NCBI GenBank assembly: GCA_963762565.1 | Contig: CAVXLD010000013.1 | Span: 1-64,000 of the forward strand | Source of the DNA: an uncultured Verrucomicrobiae bacterium | GTDB lineage: Bacteria; Verrucomicrobiota; Verrucomicrobiia; Chthoniobacterales; JAFAMB01 | Length of the DNA: 64,000 nucleotides | Direction of reading: 5' to 3' | Shown here: piece after piece, positions 2,545-28,491 of the stretch | Layout of the letters: each line of letters begins with the position of its first letter | Position numbering within the stretch: the stretch's first letter is position 1 | Notes under the pieces: generated by a model | Database searches by the model: none | What the model was told of the DNA's origin: nothing | What the model saw: only the letters and a program-made list of their open reading frames with translations | Translations under genes and position numbers: made by a program

Positions 2545-2745
2545 GGCGCCCTACCGCTCCCCGAATTCGTCCACGGCCTCGCTCCTGGGAGCGCCGATCC
2601 TCGTCGACCGCTCCCCGAGCACTCACCGTTTTGCTTGCGCAGCGGCCCCAAATACGGCAAAAATGGGGGCCAGTCTGAAACCTAACTATTGTACGAATTG
2701 TGATGACTGGATAACAGGCTTAAGGTACCGGGCACTTCTTTTTCT

Positions 2746-4440
2746 GTGATTCAAAATTTGTTGAAAATCGCCCGCGACAGTCATTGCACTGACGTACGCG
2801 CTTGCGAAGAAATCCTACAGGGAGCCGCCGAAGATCAGAGGTCTTTGATCCGAGCAATTCTCGATGCCCGGGTCGTTGATGAGGCGAAATTTCTGCGAGC
2901 GGTGAGCGGCTGGCTCGGAATTCCTTGGTGGGAAGAGGCAATTAATTCGGTCGCAGCTCCCCTGCGGGAAAAAATACCGGCTCGTCTTGCCCTTCGGCAC
3001 CAGATCGTGCCTCTCAGACTTGAGGACAACACGGTTTGGGTTGGTTTTTACGATCCGTTTGATCTGGTGGCGCGTCAGGCGTTGGCGGGTGCGTTGGAGC
3101 AGAAGGTCGTTTACAACATGGTGACCAGGACCCAGCTCCTGCAGGCGCTAAGGCAAGGGTACGGCATCGGCGCAGAAACCTTTGAAGCGCTGCTCGAAGG
3201 CAGAGCAAACGACGACGACCCGGACCTACGCCAGGAAACCAATGTCATCGATGTCGACGATTCGGAAGCGTCCGTCGTCAAGTTTGTGAACCAGATTTTG
3301 CGCGAAGCCTTAGAGCAGAGGGCGACCGACATTCATTGTGAGCCGATGGCATCCGATCTTCGGATTCGATACCGCATCGATGGTGTCCTCCACGAAGTAC
3401 CGGTTCCGGCCAATATCCGCGTACTGCAAGCTTCGGTTATTTCGCGTTTAAAAGTGATGGCGCGCTTGGATATTGCCGAGCGTCGGTTGCCTCAGGATGG
3501 ACGCATCAATCTTGAATTGGATGGCCAACCGATCGACGTTCGCGTGGCGACGATTCCGTCGGTAACTGGGGAAAGCGTCAGTCTTCGCCTTTTAGGTCAA
3601 GAGAAATTCACTTTTGATCGTCTAGGTCTCGATCCCGACTCTCGCCGTAGGATCGAACATCTTTTGTCGCTACCTAACGGCATCGTACTAGTAACCGGGC
3701 CAACTGGCTGCGGTAAATCGACTTCTCTTTACACGTTTCTGTCCATCTTAAACACAAAGGAACGGCGGATCGTTACGGTTGAGGACCCGGTTGAATATCA
3801 GCTGCCCGGCGTCATTCAAATTGCGGTTAAACCTGAAATTGATCTGACTTTCGCCAATGGATTGCGCAGCATCCTTCGAGGCGACCCGAACGTGATTATG
3901 GTGGGGGAAATGCGCGACCGGGAGACAGCGGAGATCGCCATTCGTGGCGCACTGACTGGCCACTTGGTATTTAGCACATTGCACACGAACGATGCGATCG
4001 GCGGTATCACCCGGTTGCTAGATATGGGGATAGAGCCATTCTTAGTGGGCAGTTCGGTGCGAGCGTTTATCGCTCAACGATTGGTGCGCGTGCTTTGTCC
4101 CCGCTGCAAACAGCCCGGTGAATATTCCTCGGAATACTTTCGTAAGGTTGGGTTCGCTCCGGACAAGGACCACCCTCCTTACGCCGCGGTCGGCTGCCAT
4201 GCCTGCCGAAACACTGGATTCCTAGGCAGAGCTGCTATCTACGAAATCTGTATGGTTTCGTCGCAAATTCAGGACCTGATCGTAGGTGGCAAAACCGCTT
4301 CTGCTCTGCGCGCGGCCGCTGTCGAAGAGGGAATGGTACCGCTGCGACAGTATGGTTGGACCAAGGTTTACGAAGGTGTTACTACGATCGAAGAAGTCGC
4401 GCGCGTAACCGCCGCTGAGCTCGAGATGGCCGAGGAGTAG
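2746..4440 (+). CDS. GspE/PulE/PilB-family secretion ATPase
   Basis: Walker A GPTGCGKST, TVEDPVEY, LRGDPNVIMVGEMRD, GHLVFSTLHTND, two CxxC zinc motifs. Confidence 0.95.
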   Translation: MIQNLLKIARDSHCTDVRACEEILQGAAEDQRSLIRAILDARVVDEAKFLRAVSGWLGIPWWEEAINSVAAPLREKIPARLALRHQIVPLRLEDNTVWVGFYDPFDLVARQALAGALEQKVVYNMVTRTQLLQALRQGYGIGAETFEALLEGRANDDDPDLRQETNVIDVDDSEASVVKFVNQILREALEQRATDIHCEPMASDLRIRYRIDGVLHEVPVPANIRVLQASVISRLKVMARLDIAERRLPQDGRINLELDGQPIDVRVATIPSVTGESVSLRLLGQEKFTFDRLGLDPDSRRRIEHLLSLPNGIVLVTGPTGCGKSTSLYTFLSILNTKERRIVTVEDPVEYQLPGVIQIAVKPEIDLTFANGLRSILRGDPNVIMVGEMRDRETAEIAIRGALTGHLVFSTLHTNDAIGGITRLLDMGIEPFLVGSSVRAFIAQRLVRVLCPRCKQPGEYSSEYFRKVGFAPDKDHPPYAAVGCHACRNTGFLGRAAIYEICMVSSQIQDLIVGGKTASALRAAAVEEGMVPLRQYGWTKVYEGVTTIEEVARVTAAELEMAEE

Positions 4441-4456
4441 CGAGGGAACGTGAAAG

Positions 4457-4643
4457 GTGATTGGTGATTTGTGATTGGTGAAAGGCAAAGCCCGCAACCG
4501 CGCCATCCGAAATGACAAAGCTTCTTAAGCGTCATATTAGTCTGATTCGTGCGATGCGCCTGTTCAGTGTGACCGCTCCTGGCGTACAGCACCAATCACC
4601 AATCACTAATCACCAATCACATAGCGACCAGTGAAAGGGAGCT
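4457..4643. repeat. Inverted element with GTGATTG 7-mer arms and AGCGACC..GAAAGGGAGCT cap
   Basis: Arms at 4457-4480 and 4590-4620; same arms and cap at 5904-6105. Confidence 0.85.
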
Positions 4644-4650
4644 ACTAGCC

Positions 4651-5883
4651 ATGCCTGTATTCGTCTTCGAGGCAGTAAACCGAGGGGGGAAACGCGTTCG
4701 CGGAGAACTGACCGCCCAGAGCCGGTCGGAGGTGTTCCGAAAACTCGATATCGATCGCCTTCAACCGATCAAGATCGAGGAGAAGGACGGTGTAAACGGT
4801 AGTAAGACGCCGGTCACCGAGCGCGTTGTAACCACTAAAGTCCGGCTTTCACGGGGGCAGATCATTCGTTTTACCGAAGAGCTAAGTGATCTTTTGGATG
4901 CCGGGTTGCAGATCGATCCCGCTCTCCACGTCATGGAGAAGCGCAAAGAGCTTTCCGCGCTAAAAAATGTGGCGGGTGCACTTCGCTCCCATGTTCGTGA
5001 CGGCAGCAGTCTGTCAACGGCGATGCGCGCTGTGTGCCCGAGTTTTGGCGAGCTTTACTGTAACTTGGTGTCTGCCGGAGAATTGAGCGGATCTTTACCG
5101 CAGCTTTTACGCAGGCAAGCCCAGTTTCTGGTTACGATCAGTGATCTGCAAGGAAAGGTGTTTGCGGCTTTGACCTATCCGGCCATGATTTTTGTGGTCG
5201 GCATCGGTCTGATTGTCATTTTCATGACCTATCTGGTCCCGCAGATCACGGTGCTCTTTGAAAAGACCGGCAAAGAAATTCCGTTATTGACGCGGCTCTT
5301 GATCCAGACCAGTGGGTTTATGGCGAACTATTGGTGGGCGATCCTGGCAACGGTGGTGATGGTCTGTGTCGGGTTTTGGCAGTTAATCAGTACGCCGGGC
5401 GGACGCCGATGGTGGCACCAAACCCAGATCGGCCTGCCGATAGTGGGAGGTATACTTCGCGGCCGTTTCTATGCCCAATTTGCCCAAACTCTGGCCAACC
5501 TGGTTCAAAATGGTCTTCCCTTGCTGAACGGTCTCCAGTTGGTCAAGGGAGGCACAGGCAATGAACACTGGCAGACGCTTATTCAGAAGGTGACAGATTA
5601 CGTCGGAGAAGGCGGTTCTTTCTCACGAGGCCTAGAAAAACTGTCCGACTTTCCACCGATGTTTATCGATATGGTCGCGGTCGGCGAGCAGACGGGCGAC
5701 CTGGCTAAAGCCCTGGATAAAGTCGGCCAGAAATATGACAAAGAGTTGAATCTCAAGATTCAGCGCCTCACGGCCTTAGTGCAACCGGTCGTGATTTTTG
5801 TGATGGCCGGCATGGTGGGCATAATCGCTTATTCAATTATCAACGGCATCTTTGACGCCGTGTCCGGACTGCAGAATGGATGA
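4651..5883 (+). CDS. GspF/PilC-family inner-membrane platform protein
   Basis: Two T2SSF-like repeats (AGELSGSL, VGEQTGDL), ALTYP, transmembrane segments; follows the gspE-like gene. Confidence 0.93.
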   Translation: MPVFVFEAVNRGGKRVRGELTAQSRSEVFRKLDIDRLQPIKIEEKDGVNGSKTPVTERVVTTKVRLSRGQIIRFTEELSDLLDAGLQIDPALHVMEKRKELSALKNVAGALRSHVRDGSSLSTAMRAVCPSFGELYCNLVSAGELSGSLPQLLRRQAQFLVTISDLQGKVFAALTYPAMIFVVGIGLIVIFMTYLVPQITVLFEKTGKEIPLLTRLLIQTSGFMANYWWAILATVVMVCVGFWQLISTPGGRRWWHQTQIGLPIVGGILRGRFYAQFAQTLANLVQNGLPLLNGLQLVKGGTGNEHWQTLIQKVTDYVGEGGSFSRGLEKLSDFPPMFIDMVAVGEQTGDLAKALDKVGQKYDKELNLKIQRLTALVQPVVIFVMAGMVGIIAYSIINGIFDAVSGLQNG

Positions 5884-18859: not shown

Positions 18860-19636
18860 TCAGAAGTAGAAGGGAATCCCCATCTGCTCAAACACCTTCT
18901 TGTTTTCCCCAAAATACTTATTCCCGAGTTCGTTGAAGCCGCCGGTCTCCTTAAACTGCTTGAGGAAGGCGTTTACCTGTTGGCGCAGCTCATCGTTTCC
19001 TTTGCGGATCCCGATCGCCCACACTTCACTCTGAAAAGGCTTAAGGATTGCTTTCGTCGTATCCTGATGGCTTTTCCAAAGCTGAAAGATTGAGATCTGA
19101 TCGTAGAGCATGCAGTCCGCTTTCCCCTGAGCTACCTCGGTTGCGCAAGTCGGTGCGTCACTAAAGGTATTAATCTTTGCGTTGTGAAAATGCTGGATCG
19201 CGTAGATATGGCCGGTAGTAGCCTTTTTTACAGCGACGGTGGCGTTGGGTTTGTCCACATCGTCGATCGATTGGATCGGGCTATTTTTATTCGCCAGGAT
19301 GGAGAGCCCCATCGTTAGATAAGGATCGCTAAAGTCAATGGACTTGGCTCGCTCCGCCGTTCTGGTCATCGATGAGATCGCCAAATCAATTTTCCCCGTC
19401 TTTAAGGAGGGGATAAGCCCATCAAAGGGGATGTTTTCGAAGCGCACCGGCCGGTGAAGATACTCTCCCATCGCTCGCGCCATATCCACACTAACACCCG
19501 CAGGCTGGCCGCTTGAATCCAGCATTTCGAACGGCGGAAACTGCATCTCCATTCCGATGATCAGCTCGTTTTCGGCGGCTCCGGCCGCTCCGGTGAGGAA
19601 AAATGCTAGCAAAAGCCCGCTGAATAGTGATTTCAC
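18860..19636 (-). CDS. Polar amino-acid ABC transporter substrate-binding protein (SBP family 3)
   Basis: Signal peptide, FPPFE, FDGLIPSLKTGKIDL, ERAKSIDFSDPY. Confidence 0.93.
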   Translation of the reverse strand: MKSLFSGLLLAFFLTGAAGAAENELIIGMEMQFPPFEMLDSSGQPAGVSVDMARAMGEYLHRPVRFENIPFDGLIPSLKTGKIDLAISSMTRTAERAKSIDFSDPYLTMGLSILANKNSPIQSIDDVDKPNATVAVKKATTGHIYAIQHFHNAKINTFSDAPTCATEVAQGKADCMLYDQISIFQLWKSHQDTTKAILKPFQSEVWAIGIRKGNDELRQQVNAFLKQFKETGGFNELGNKYFGENKKVFEQMGIPFYF

Positions 19637-19644
19637 AGGAAAAA

Positions 19645-19880
19645 TTCACCACAAAGACTCAGAGGACACAAAGAGAAAACACAGGAGCCGGAAACCAGAA
19701 TCCAGGAGTCAGGAGACGCGCCGTCGGTGGAACAGGGGCGAAACGACGCCAAAGTGGACGAAAGTGGACGCAGTGGACGTAGTGGATTCGCTCAGATTCG
19801 GCGATGGAGGGTTGTCGCTGCACTCTTGGTCCACTCTGTCGACTTAGTCCACTGAGTCCACTTACGCCCACTCGCCCCTG
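19645..19880. repeat. Composite tandem/inverted repeat (CACAAAGA-type, CAGGAGT-type and AGTGGACG / GTCCACT arms)
   Basis: Four AGTGGA(C/T) units near 19752-19787 and inverse GTCCACT units near 19829-19862. Confidence 0.75.
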
Positions 19881-19954
19881 TGCGGCCTTTTGGGACAGTC
19901 GCCGCTACCGAGAGACGAGCAACTATGGTAGCGTTCGCTGCAGCTGCACATCCA

Positions 19955-20773
19955 ATGCTTGAGGTACGTGATCTAACCGTAAAGTTCATCGCCGAGGGCG
20001 AAGAATTCACGGCTGTCGAGTCGGTCTCGTTCATTGTTGGTGATGGCGAGACTCTTGCCGTGGTGGGAGAGAGCGGGAGCGGAAAGAGCGTAACCGCTCT
20101 GGCGTTGACCAGATTGCTGCCTGAGCCGCCAGCCCACATCGCCGGCGGCGTCTTACTTGACGGCCAATCCATTTTCGCCAGCTCCGCACGTGACCTTCGC
20201 CAGATTAGAGGCCGGCAAATCGCTTATATTTTCCAGGAACCAGCGACCAGCTTAAACCCAGTCTTCTCGATCTACGAGCAACTGGCTGAGACCTTGCGGC
20301 GGCATCGGCCAGAGGTAAAGAATTTGCGCAAGGAAGTTCTTTATTGGCTAGATCAGGTAGGAATTCGCGAGCCAAACAAACGCATCGGTGATTACCCATT
20401 TCAACTAAGCGGTGGAATGCAACAACGAGTCATGATCGCGATGGCCTTGTGTGCTCGCCCAAAAATCCTAGTGGCAGACGAACCGACTACAGCCCTGGAT
20501 GTGACCGTGCAAAGTCAGATCCTCGACCTGTTCCGAGAGCTCAAACTGCGGTTCGGAATGTCGATTATCTTGATCACGCATAATTTCGGTATCATTCGAG
20601 GTCTAGCCGACAAAGTGGCGGTCATGTACCGGGGCCGGCTGTTGGAATTTGGCGAATGTAGTGCGGTTCTAAAAAACCCTCAGCACAGCTACACTAGAGC
20701 GCTAATCGATTGCGTCCCCCGGCTCGGCGCCGGCCTGCGCCGGCTCAAGACCATCGAGCGAAGCTCGCCTTAG
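19955..20773 (+). CDS. Oligopeptide/dipeptide ABC transporter ATP-binding protein (OppD/DppD-like)
   Basis: GESGSGKS, IFQEP, LSGGMQQR, ADEPTTALD. Confidence 0.93.
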   Translation: MLEVRDLTVKFIAEGEEFTAVESVSFIVGDGETLAVVGESGSGKSVTALALTRLLPEPPAHIAGGVLLDGQSIFASSARDLRQIRGRQIAYIFQEPATSLNPVFSIYEQLAETLRRHRPEVKNLRKEVLYWLDQVGIREPNKRIGDYPFQLSGGMQQRVMIAMALCARPKILVADEPTTALDVTVQSQILDLFRELKLRFGMSIILITHNFGIIRGLADKVAVMYRGRLLEFGECSAVLKNPQHSYTRALIDCVPRLGAGLRRLKTIERSSP

Positions 20774-26280: not shown

Positions 26281-26298
26281 ATCTTTTTCTTCGGCCAA

Positions 26299-26446
26299 CG
26301 AACACAGAATAGCAAATAGCAGATAGCAAATCGAGACCATCGACCTCGGTCAGCGCGAAACCGCTTTTCAGATCCAAGCTCCGGATTGCGCCGGCCTGCG
26401 CAAGCAGAGCTTCCTTTGCTATTTGCTATCTGCTATTTGCTGTTCG
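26299..26446. repeat. Inverted element with AATAGCA 7-mer arms
   Basis: Arms at 26308-26331 and 26415-26446, between divergent genes. Confidence 0.85.
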
Positions 26447-26463
26447 GTCTTCCTTCTCAGCGC

Positions 26464-28491
26464 GTGAAATTACCCAAACTTCTATTTGGCGTTGCTACTG
26501 CGGATCATCAAGCCGAGGCGTTTGATCCAAACATCCCGGATTTCCGGGATGAATGGGAACGGCTAACCGGCCAAACTCTGCGAGGGCAAGCGACCGATTT
26601 CTGGAATCGATATCGGGAGGATATCAGTCTTGCCCGCGACCTCGGTTGCAAAATTTTTCGGTTCTCGGTTGGCTGGTCTCGAGTTGAACCAGAGCCCAGC
26701 AAATTTGACTCCTCGGTGCTGGAGCATTATCGGCAAGTCGCCTCCGCTATCCGCGAAGTGGGCATGTTGCCTTTGGTAACGCTTCACCATTTTACTTGGC
26801 CGATCCATATCCAAGAACGGGGGGGAATGATCGCGCAACATTTTCCCACCTGGTATCAAGCCTATGTGGCCCAAGTTGTGGAGGCGATCGGAGATCTGGT
26901 TCCTTATTGGATCACTTTTAATGAGCCGAACCTGTTGGTGTACGGCTACGTGAAACCGTGGTGGCAGGAAACCTATTTTGTCCCGCCTGGAGCCGGACCT
27001 GAAATCCCTCTTTCGACGCAATTGGAACGGGCAGCCCAGCTGATCCGCAACATCTTTGTGGGGCACCGATTGGCGAGAGAAACGATCCGGCAGAAGAACC
27101 CGGCGGCAAAGGTTGGAACTAATCCTTTTGTGTTGGGTCTGCCATCTGCGCTGCAATGGTTTATTGATTTTTTGGCGACGCGTACGCGGTCTAAGAAGCA
27201 ATTTGAACAGCGCTCAAAGCTGGTGGCAGAACCACCAATCCCGCCGCCAACTTCGGTTGATCTCGTGATTGCCCAATTCGCACCAACTCAAGATCGGGCA
27301 GCGAAGGTCGCATTCTCGAAGTCGTACGATGAAAGCACTGAGCGTTTGGTAGTCAGGAACGGAAGCGGCTTCATCCAGTTGGCAGATTTGAACGGTCACC
27401 GAGTCGGTTACGTTCGCGGTTCAGTCTCGAATCGTACCCTGGCCCGGTATGCGCCAAATTCCTTGCCCCGCCCATTTGAGACTCATCATAACGGATTGGA
27501 AGCTTTGGAGGCAGGCTGGATCGACGGGTTTATTGCGGACGAGGTCCGGATTACTCACGTTGGACTGCCCCCTTCTCTGGTGATGCTGGAACACGCATTG
27601 GGGCAATGGGAATGCGCGGTGGCTGTCGCCCGCGGCAATCCGGATCTATTAAACCTGGTGAACGCCGTGGTCGCGCGCGACCTTCCGGCGGGAGCTCCGA
27701 TCCACGGCCGGTCAATCGAAGCCATCCGGCGTCGGGGCCAGCTTCGAGTAGGTGTCACTTTCGATCCAAATGCCGAGTCGTTACCCGACCGGCTGAAGAA
27801 AGAGATCGATCTTGCTGAAGAGGTAGGGGAACGGATCTTTGGCCGGCGTGGTTGTGTTCAATTCGAACTTCTGCGGATGGATGAAAGAGTAAAATCACTC
27901 CGTTCCTGGCTTCATTTTTTCGAACCGGTGTTAAGAGCCGTTAGCGTTGTCGGTACCGTCCTGAACAGTAACTGGTGGCATCTGGGGATGGCCGGAAAAT
28001 TGCCGGAAATGTTTTGTCCTAAAGAATGTGCCGGTCAGCAGGATTTTGTGGGTCTCGATTACTATTGGGGAATCGATAGTCTCGAATTACATCGGATGCA
28101 CCAACTCATCGACGCCACCATGAGCCGGTTCGATGACGCGCCGGTCGATTCTCCAGGCTTACTAAGGTCGCTATCGCGGTTACATCGCTGGTTTCCAGAC
28201 AAAGAGATTCTCATCATCGAGAATGGATGTATCGAACACGCCGACAATTTAACTCGCGAGGAATACTTGCGCGCGCATATCCGCGAAGTGACTCGGGCTC
28301 GGGCAATGGGTATCCCGGTTGCCGGTTACATTTGCTGGAGCATCACTTCGAACCGGGAATGGGGACTGGAATTTGGGCCGGCGAGCGACTTCGGGTTGTA
28401 TCACATCGATCTCGACGATGATCCCGAGCTAAAGCGCGTATCGACTCCCAGCGCAGAAATGTATAAGCGGGTGATTCAGGAGGAGGGGTAG
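26464..28491 (+). CDS. GH1 glycoside hydrolase with inserted circularly permuted SBP family 3 domain
   Basis: FGVATADHQAE, FRFSVGWSRVEP, TLHHFTWP, TFNEP, IIENG, NREW..FGL; insert at 27256-27900. Confidence 0.88.
   Translation: MKLPKLLFGVATADHQAEAFDPNIPDFRDEWERLTGQTLRGQATDFWNRYREDISLARDLGCKIFRFSVGWSRVEPEPSKFDSSVLEHYRQVASAIREVGMLPLVTLHHFTWPIHIQERGGMIAQHFPTWYQAYVAQVVEAIGDLVPYWITFNEPNLLVYGYVKPWWQETYFVPPGAGPEIPLSTQLERAAQLIRNIFVGHRLARETIRQKNPAAKVGTNPFVLGLPSALQWFIDFLATRTRSKKQFEQRSKLVAEPPIPPPTSVDLVIAQFAPTQDRAAKVAFSKSYDESTERLVVRNGSGFIQLADLNGHRVGYVRGSVSNRTLARYAPNSLPRPFETHHNGLEALEAGWIDGFIADEVRITHVGLPPSLVMLEHALGQWECAVAVARGNPDLLNLVNAVVARDLPAGAPIHGRSIEAIRRRGQLRVGVTFDPNAESLPDRLKKEIDLAEEVGERIFGRRGCVQFELLRMDERVKSLRSWLHFFEPVLRAVSVVGTVLNSNWWHLGMAGKLPEMFCPKECAGQQDFVGLDYYWGIDSLELHRMHQLIDATMSRFDDAPVDSPGLLRSLSRLHRWFPDKEILIIENGCIEHADNLTREEYLRAHIREVTRARAMGIPVAGYICWSITSNREWGLEFGPASDFGLYHIDLDDDPELKRVSTPSAEMYKRVIQEEG

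Follow-up and report, generated by a model that had tools for sequence, protein, structure and literature searches.

What does an amino-acid-binding domain do inside the barrel of a glycosidase, and might it govern the enzyme that carries it? The question is raised by a gene at 26464..28491 on the forward strand of a 64,000-nucleotide stretch of DNA, called the window throughout (positions 1 to 64,000 of contig CAVXLD010000013.1, assembly GCA_963762565.1, from an uncultured Verrucomicrobiae bacterium), whose product unites a glycoside hydrolase family 1 (GH1) domain and a circularly permuted substrate-binding protein (SBP) of family 3. The first-pass annotation, a model's reading of the sequence, had put this protein forward as a candidate natural ligand-gated enzyme. 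The GH1-SBP architecture is real, widespread and uncharacterised, and belongs to a distinct GH1 subfamily with motifs of its own. In the full-text literature, with subscription journals outside the coverage, no description of a GH1 enzyme with a permuted SBP was found; a further search brought up engineered examples only, and the only paper containing both domain names (PMC13111413/PMC12632509) has them in unrelated tables.

A permuted binding protein within a GH1 barrel

The gene and its parts are the following; structural elements were taken from an AlphaFold2 (AF2) model and from alignments to chains in the PDB.

26464..28491, + strand: GH1 + permuted SBP coding sequence; GTG start, 675 codons (protein P0001, 675 aa), stop codon 28489-28491.
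26464..27144, + strand: GH1 N-terminal part, residues 1-227, beta1-beta5 and acid/base motif (best Pfam stretch, profile 9-218; AF2; PDB GH1 alignments).
26647-26649, + strand: C62 in LGCK, invariant cysteine.
26914..26928, + strand: TFNEP motif, residues 151-155, with E154 the predicted catalytic acid/base; aligns to the NEP of solved GH1 chains.
27145..27255, + strand: outgoing stalk, residues 228-264, helices 228-240 and 244-255 and a Pro-rich linker to the insert (AF2).
27256..27675, + strand: SBP segment A, residues 265-404, starting with VDLVIA; canonical residue ~68 to near the C-terminus (a lobe-1 strand, lobe 2 in full and the way back into lobe 1).
27295-27297, 27421-27423 and 27538-27540, + strand: R278, S320 and D359, key residues of segment A together with H341 (mapped on GlnH; conservation).
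27676..27711, + strand: linker, residues 405-416, connecting the former C- and N-termini of the SBP (alignment A2; AF2 pLDDT falls to 74-80).
27712..27900, + strand: SBP segment B, residues 417-479, from SIEAIRRRG to DERVKSL; equivalent to the first ~70 residues in canonical order, the beta-alpha-beta part of lobe 1.
27886-27888, + strand: R475 in DERVKSL, equivalent of GlnH Arg147.
27901..27990, + strand: return stalk, residues 480-509, long helix 482-500 and short helix 504-509 (AF2).
27991..28488, + strand: GH1 C-terminal part, residues 510-675, subfamily motif GMAGKLPEMFCPKEC, beta6-beta8 and nucleophile motif (Pfam, PDB, alignment A1, AF2).
28015-28029, + strand: C518 and C522 in FCPKEC (LCPxEC), invariant cysteines.
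28213..28227, + strand: IIENG motif, residues 584-588, with E586 the predicted catalytic nucleophile; aligns to the TENG/ENG of solved GH1 chains.

The first-pass annotation had read both GH1 motifs as intact, had delimited an insert of ~215 aa between them at 27256-27900 with a normally N-terminal piece from 27712, and had called the order of its segments permuted. All of this holds: the motifs and the coordinates recur in the translation from GTG 26464, and alignments to PDB chains place the two pieces of the insert in reversed order. The profile scan that it had suggested gives the split expected, since Pfam Glyco_hydro_1 (PF00232) matches with 163.9 bits (cut-off 22.6, E 5.9e-48) in two stretches flanking the insert, and SBP_bac_3 (PF00497) matches between them with 37.7 bits (cut-off 26.4, E 2e-9).

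The catalytic domain is recognisable at every level. Relatives numbering 631 came up in a word-indexed homolog search; 120 were listed, and alignment A1 was composed of the query and 43 homologs hand-picked from these 120. In all 44 sequences, N153, E154 and P155 of the first motif and E586 and G588 of the second are invariant, as are Q16, H108, Y533/Y534, W625, E632 and W633, which we take to be the sugar-binding residues of GH1 enzymes. Strands beta1-beta5 lie at residues 7-11, 64-70, 102-108, 148-153 and 216-225 of the AF2 model, and the (beta/alpha)8 barrel characteristic of the family is found, with at least 500 Foldseek matches in the PDB, those listed being GH1 structures (E ~5e-20, target-normalised template modelling score 0.63-0.72). 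No NCBIfam model scored above its own cut-off with the window protein; in particular, the equivalog TIGR03356, 'GH1 family beta-glucosidase', scored 173 bits where its cut-off lies at 478.5, and therefore the protein is not to be named a canonical BGL. With its two catalytic motifs intact, the protein is predicted from sequence to act as a retaining beta-glycosidase, and it falls in a GH1 subfamily of its own.

This subfamily is marked by motifs found only in its members, namely D14-H15 before Q16, C62, NSNWWHLGMAGKLP and LCPxEC with C518 and C522, which also mark the members that lack the SBP; a metal or redox site might be made up of the three invariant cysteines. The canonical GH1 enzymes BGL167 (4r27), Thermotoga maritima BglA (1od0) and the termite enzyme 3ai0 have the fold, the NEP/ENG motifs and the sugar-pocket residues in common with the window protein, whereas the ~260 residues of stalk and SBP between beta5 and beta6 are peculiar to the latter, in which the stretch from the G-x-Y-P region to beta6 is, on reading the sequences, also shorter. 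The subfamily-only motifs and the TIGR03356 score below cut-off further set it apart from them.

The order of the SBP segments was established at two levels of sensitivity. With the single insert as query, insert residues 9-149 align to residues 68-214 of AncQR, an ancestral Gln/Arg binder (E 5e-11), and residues 163-226 to residues 43-111 of Mycobacterium tuberculosis GlnH (independent E-value, i-E, 0.09). With a profile of 29 inserts (A2: the window insert and 28 others hand-picked from 56 full-length open reading frames, ORFs, of the genomic loci described below), 281 distinct PDB chains were matched at E <= 0.001; the best is the glutamate-binding protein of Enterococcus faecium, 5eyf (E 8.9e-59), whose chain A residues 73-239 align to profile columns 2-168 (i-E 1.2e-46) and residues 4-75 to columns 203-274 (i-E 9.2e-10). 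GlnH (6h1u) aligns to the profile in the same reversed order. The insert thus lacks the canonical N-to-C order and is a circularly permuted SBP, its order reversed far beyond chance.

As a control, the A2 profile was applied to 116 proteins, drawn from the best 120 of 164 matches to an insert search among proteins of up to 517 aa, plus P0172: the canonical order was found in 105 of them, the 11 others comprising nine with GH1 sequence and two short pieces (P0277, P0279) unassigned to either order, so that no free-standing permuted SBP could be demonstrated in this set. The canonical order is also that of the family 3 SBP which the first-pass annotation had pointed to at 18860-19636 in the window; it is a real gene, on the minus strand, that covers the whole SBP_bac_3 profile (E 4.9e-40), encodes a signal peptide and adjoins an oligopeptide-type ATP-binding cassette (ABC) ATPase at 19880-20773 (+), with no permease gene between the two. 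Pairwise BLAST of the insert against this protein gives weak matches, in the order expected (E 0.012 for the large piece and 0.27 for the N-terminal piece), and the identity of only 18% over the aligned part argues that it is not a recent donor of the insert.

The break point of the permutation falls inside the canonical helix that precedes the VDLVIA strand, R-I-P-L-L-x-S-G-K-V-D; the insert opens with the second half of this helix and closes with the first, with an overlap of ~2-3 residues when counted in the canonical protein. The cyanobacterial and Chloroflexota inserts of A2 start with ALLEKGQVDVVIA and end with ERLPLLRS, which are the two halves of the canonical helix R-I-P-L-L-K-x-G-x-I-D. 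Such an overlap is what a tandem duplicate, trimmed afterwards at both ends, would be expected to leave behind, as in the permutation-by-duplication model. The linker 405-416 that now joins the old termini is far shorter in the window protein than in the cyanobacterial and Chloroflexota forms.

The full-length model, based on A1, has a mean predicted local distance difference test (pLDDT) of 87.9 and a predicted template modelling score (pTM) of 0.85. The chain runs through beta1-beta5 (to residue 225), two helices, the SBP elements (267-469), the return helices, a conserved loop of 18 residues and beta6 (528-536), and then through beta7 with ENG (581-587) and beta8. The SBP sits at the tip of a helical hairpin between beta5 and beta6, with both ends of the domain in one helix of lobe 1; both connectors leave lobe 1, and the C-terminal one, a helix of 19 residues, starts four residues past Arg475 and runs to the invariant loop ahead of beta6. 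The GH1 part amounts to ~66% of the residues, and because a pTM of 0.85 is reached although GH1 is only about two thirds of the chain, the model suggests that the SBP is placed confidently relative to the barrel. In the ESM Atlas, only clusters of the protein's own family were returned and no structure for the protein itself.

Folded alone from A2, the insert takes up the SBP fold, as the first-pass annotation had supposed, with pLDDT 90.7 and pTM 0.85 and with the two-lobed alpha/beta architecture and hinge of the SBP_bac_3 family. The PDB matches that Foldseek lists for it are almost all amino-acid-binding proteins, and it superposes on ligand-bound PEB1a-Asp, GlnH-Glu and holo ArgBP with a root-mean-square deviation of 1.8-2.2 A over ~145 columns. 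In nearly all rows ~143-175 of 227 columns are aligned, a partial coverage of the kind that a sequence-order-dependent aligner produces on a permuted domain.

The gene was taken to start at GTG 26464. Homologs align from residue 1 of the resulting protein, which begins VKLPKLLFGVATADHQ, and a GTG start followed by AAA or GAA also occurs in five relatives. A longer mechanical ORF at 26386-28491 (+), with a TTG start and 701 aa, adds 26 codons for a hydrophobic stretch; this start was rejected because the added stretch, which is without counterpart in homologs, translates an arm of an upstream heptamer repeat. The chain has no extension before beta1, which begins at residue 7 of the model, and the FGVATxDHQ motif is reached directly from the start in six homologs as well, on reading their sequences. 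Neither a signal peptide nor a lipobox is evident in the window protein, as judged by reading the sequence and with no predictor run, in agreement with the first-pass annotation, and the protein is thus predicted to be cytoplasmic. In the closest genome relative (L001, 88% identity) a pair of overlapping ORFs, 2618-3700 and 3649-4674, takes the place of a single gene (L001:2618-4674), probably through a local frameshift or an assembly error of a metagenome-assembled genome (MAG).

Spread and history of the insert

The architecture is shared by nearly the whole set of close relatives. Both Pfam domains are present in the database annotation of 114 of the 120 listed homologs, and the insert profile finds the permuted domain in 119, P0103 being the exception, which speaks against the assembly chimera considered in the first-pass annotation. 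A relative is encoded in 456 of 542 candidate genome stretches, from which 66 loci were kept; classified by their record titles, they are 32 from Cyanobacteriota, 15 from Verrucomicrobiota, nine from Chloroflexota, two from Pseudomonadota, two from Methanobacteriota (MAGs), one from Acidobacteriota and five without phylum. They include the finished chromosome of Chlorogloeopsis fritschii PCC 6912 and the nearly complete genome of Nostoc sp. NIES-4103, and the nearest relatives of the window protein are from Verrucomicrobiota MAGs (85-88% identity). The two archaeal loci (L064, L065), on contigs of Methanotrichaceae MAGs, encode full-length GH1-SBP proteins of 40-41% identity; either horizontal transfer or contig mis-binning would account for them.

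An exhaustive search of representatives also found relatives of 457-551 aa without the SBP (P0133, P0138, P0143, P0146, P0148, P0149) and two with degenerate SBP remnants (P0132, P0154). These proteins keep LGC, NxNWWHLGMAGxLP and LCPxEC, as well as the stalk helices of both sides, now joined directly (P0133 is an example). In a tree built from the GH1 columns only, with the insert columns dropped, by a 'quick' method with support from the Shimodaira-Hasegawa-like approximate likelihood ratio test only, 47 rows were hand-picked from 270 proteins (31 with the SBP, eight without it or with a degenerate one and eight canonical GH1 enzymes as outgroup). The GH1 subfamily forms a single clade with support 100, within which the SBP-less rows are scattered, and the starred branches force at least five changes. 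The simplest reading would be one gain of the insert followed by several losses or decays, with which the remnants in P0132 and P0154 fit, the tree being unable to order the events.

At the insertion site P0138 carries a hydrophobic, membrane-like stretch, so the hairpin tip tolerates insertions and appears to be a hot spot for insertion and deletion. P0078, for its part, has an SBP seemingly without most of lobe 2.

Ligand site and candidate roles

The site at which the flytrap would hold a ligand can be compared with that of GlnH. According to PMC6069109, Ser164, Arg169 and Asp250 of GlnH neutralise the amine as well as the carboxyl groups that the ligand carries and are conserved across amino-acid binders, and Arg147, Thr162 and Trp232 hold its acidic side chain. 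Counted along the single-insert PDB alignment, the positions correspond as follows.

GlnH Ser164: Ala273 of the window protein.
GlnH Arg169: Arg278.
GlnH Asp250: Asp359.
GlnH Arg147: Arg475.
GlnH Thr162: Gln271.
GlnH Trp232: His341.

Two of the three residues that hold the amino and carboxyl groups are therefore kept in the window protein, Ala273 replacing the serine. Among the 44 homologs of A1, R278 and D359 are each present in 42 and R475 in 39 (His in four); 33 have Thr at position 273, whereas position 341 is occupied by His in 24 and by Tyr in 16. Only seven columns are invariant in the 29 inserts of A2, and two of them are insert R21 and D102, that is R278 and D359. Furthermore, the eight Verrucomicrobiota rows of A2, whose inserts are 36-83% identical, all keep R278, G-S320, T-H341, D359 and R475. 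The conserved positions appear, from these alignments, to be those of a working amino-acid site.

The insert is maintained by purifying selection, since the ratio of nonsynonymous to synonymous substitution rates (dN/dS, by NG86) is ~0.1 in close pairs, more distant pairs being saturated at synonymous sites: it is 0.098 for the insert and 0.054 for the core in the window against L002, and 0.084 and 0.085, respectively, in L009 against L011, a constraint on a par with that on the GH1 core. Conserved ligand contacts and purifying selection together make ligand gating plausible, and we tentatively favour the reading in which the protein is a ligand-modulated natural enzyme whose flytrap binds a ligand and, by closing, tunes hydrolysis by the GH1 domain. 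The flytrap would still bind a small ligand resembling an alpha-amino acid, most likely acidic and akin to Asp/Glu, an expectation supported by the nearest canonical relatives of the insert, which bind Glu/Asp: 5eyf, GlnH, PEB1a and a set of proteins that carry the annotation 'glutamate ABC transporter substrate-binding protein'. Lobe 1 would be anchored to the barrel through both connectors, with lobe 2 free to close; the closure would be transmitted via the connectors or a contact between lobe and barrel, and the signal would reach the conserved segment ahead of beta6, so tuning beta-glycoside hydrolysis up or down. A precedent for a ligand-stimulated glycoside hydrolase made by domain insertion, which counts for this reading, is the engineered xylanase/xylose-binding protein XynA-XBP271, with a gain of ~3-fold in catalytic efficiency in the presence of xylose (PMC4896006).

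Several observations weigh against gating. The flytrap of the window clade is trimmed, its old C-terminal helices (FKESGAW) and five residues of the DVPGFGYRDP loop being gone, and the equivalents of Ser164 and Thr162 are Ala273 and Gln271; as a result of this trimming and substitution, ligand binding may be altered or weakened in this clade. The insert is dispensable for a functional barrel and was probably lost repeatedly, as the scatter of SBP-less and degenerate members through the same GH1 subfamily suggests, which does not favour an essential role. In addition, the genomic context offers no link to amino-acid metabolism. In a more specific form of the proposal, the insert would have arisen by duplication and trimming, and an Asp/Glu-like metabolite would operate the switch, coupling the release of a sugar from a glycoside to nitrogen or amino-acid status; this form is a little more doubtful.

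The same conserved contact residues and the same purifying selection also fit a flytrap that recognises the substrate, binding an aglycone that resembles an amino acid, or some second portion of the substrate, and presenting the substrate to the GH1 pocket. With a glycosylated amino acid, peptide or amino-lipid, the flytrap would be an aglycone subsite or a delivery arm and not a regulator; the confident placement of the SBP against the barrel in the model (pTM 0.85) allows such a composite site, and in some GH1 enzymes the residue where beta5 ends and the beta5-alpha5 segment begins contributes to aglycone subsites. However, the SBP is held out by a pair of stalk helices on either side and may lie far from the pocket, the SBP-less members share the subfamily motifs, and one of them (L056) shares the type of neighbourhood, so that the class of substrate is seemingly independent of the SBP, and the neighbourhoods examined contain no pathway for glycosylated amino acids. 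We regard this role as unlikely.

A flytrap that in the window clade no longer binds small molecules and serves instead for oligomerisation, stability or docking is, in our estimate, a little less probable again. The features set against gating above are those that such a structural or protein-interaction module would explain, that is, the missing C-terminal helices, the missing five-residue loop segment, the missing Ser164 equivalent and the repeated loss or degeneration of the insert, as is its faster evolution at long range, where the window protein and L005 are 48% identical in the insert and 74% in the core. Against it stand R278, D359, R475, S320 and H341, present in all eight Verrucomicrobiota rows in spite of the divergence of their inserts, a pattern of kept residues expected from a working ligand site and not from a mere scaffold, and also the two lobes and the hinge strands, which are predicted with high confidence.

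An artefact, whether assembly chimera, pseudogene or chance resemblance, was rejected as next to impossible in view of a frame open across 675 codons, an architecture conserved in 119 of 120 listed homologs, relatives encoded at the 66 kept loci from six named phyla, a finished chromosome included, dN/dS of ~0.1 and profile E-values reaching 1e-46 and below.

Gene surroundings and comparable systems

In the window, genes for a major facilitator superfamily (MFS) transporter and a LuxR-type regulator, together with a divergent ABM-domain gene, lie upstream of the gene, and downstream of it lies a peroxiredoxin; an ABC permease/ATPase pair with which an SBP would partner in transport is not found among these neighbours. 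This gene order is common only to relatives of 78-88% identity, and in the Verrucomicrobiota the neighbours vary by subclade (MFS/ABM/peroxiredoxin, an unnamed protein, or rhomboid/YkuD), so these neighbourhoods provide no functional lead.

Among the Nostocales the gene closes a cluster of same-strand genes in which an alpha/beta hydrolase is found; this hydrolase is present in 26 of the 32 cyanobacterial loci. Of the 28 loci with the hydrolase (L016, L021, L051 and 25 others), 27 have it upstream and on the same strand. The cluster takes three forms, with a GMC oxidoreductase, DUF6765 and a 3beta-hydroxysteroid dehydrogenase-like epimerase, with an unknown protein, a RoxA-like cytochrome c, a P450 and a metallo-beta-lactamase-fold protein, or with an acetoacetate-decarboxylase-like protein and a patatin. 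The SBP-less member L056, from a Chloroflexota MAG, has a similar neighbourhood (alpha/beta hydrolase, patatin). As a lead only, and from outside the window's own lineage, these clusters hint at a lipophilic, lipid- or sterol-like, glycoside as the substrate; a full-text literature search for DUF6765 had no match.

The divergent intergenic region between the ABM-domain gene and the GH1-SBP gene contains one further feature.

26297..26455, strand not assigned: upstream inverted repeat of two 35-nt arms, 26297-26331 and 26421-26455.

The arms are 89% complementary and 89 nt apart and are composed of TTTGCTA-like heptamers, the only such cluster in the window; their translation gives false hydrophobic N-terminal extensions to both mechanical ORFs. 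At the same place, L001 and L002 have a different heptamer array and L003 a similar one. It could serve as an operator or else represent a variable repeat, and its link to the GH1-SBP gene is putative. A scan for promoters and terminators was uninformative, with one promoter-like site against 1.7 expected and five terminator-like sites against 4.6 expected.

Among known proteins, the polar-amino-acid SBPs 5eyf, GlnH (6h1u) and Campylobacter jejuni PEB1a (2v25) have in common with the insert the two-lobed fold, the sequence family and the ligand-holding Arg and Asp. In contrast to these periplasmic proteins, the insert is permuted and embedded in an enzyme instead of free-standing, is without evident signal peptide or lipobox and without adjacent permease/ATPase and, in the window clade, is short of the former C-terminal helices and of a portion of one loop.

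Flytrap domains that control attached effectors are well known in receptors, kinases, channels and MltF. In the ionotropic glutamate receptors, the closure of the flytrap on its ligand is converted into work on an effector; their S1-S2 ligand-binding domain (AvGluR1 4io2/4io7 is among the matches of the insert) has the same fold, with two connectors from one lobe region, whereas the topology is reversed, the channel being inserted in the flytrap, and the effector is a membrane pore and not a soluble enzyme. MltF, whose SBP-like module has a regulatory role, joins an SBP_bac_3 fold and a glycan-cleaving domain in one polypeptide, as the window protein does, and its structures 4owd and 5aa2 are weak matches to the insert. 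It is, however, an end-to-end fusion in canonical SBP order, periplasmic and membrane-bound, with an SLT catalytic fold in place of GH1.

Laboratory counterparts exist as well. Switches of maltose-binding protein and beta-lactamase are engineered by domain insertion. In these and in XynA-XBP271 (PMC4896006), as in the window protein, insertion and not end-to-end fusion unites a binding protein with a hydrolase, permutation bringing the termini together. Such engineered switches are laboratory constructs with the enzyme within the binding protein, whereas the window family is natural, ancient and widespread and has the binding protein within the enzyme; the former were intended for ligand-dependent catalysis, and in the window protein switching is a proposal from sequence and model. 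By analogy, the window protein would most resemble flytrap-driven effectors in function and engineered domain-insertion switches in construction.

If the proposal is true, evolution would have found the same recipe as protein engineers, domain insertion combined with circular permutation, and a natural counterpart of the laboratory switches would be present in Verrucomicrobiota, Nostocales, Chloroflexota and other phyla. The proposal is directly testable, since the permuted insert can be expressed alone, its ends meeting, and the SBP-less sister enzymes are natural controls. The family would then provide a ready-made, evolved scaffold for the study of how the closure of a hinge is passed into a TIM barrel.

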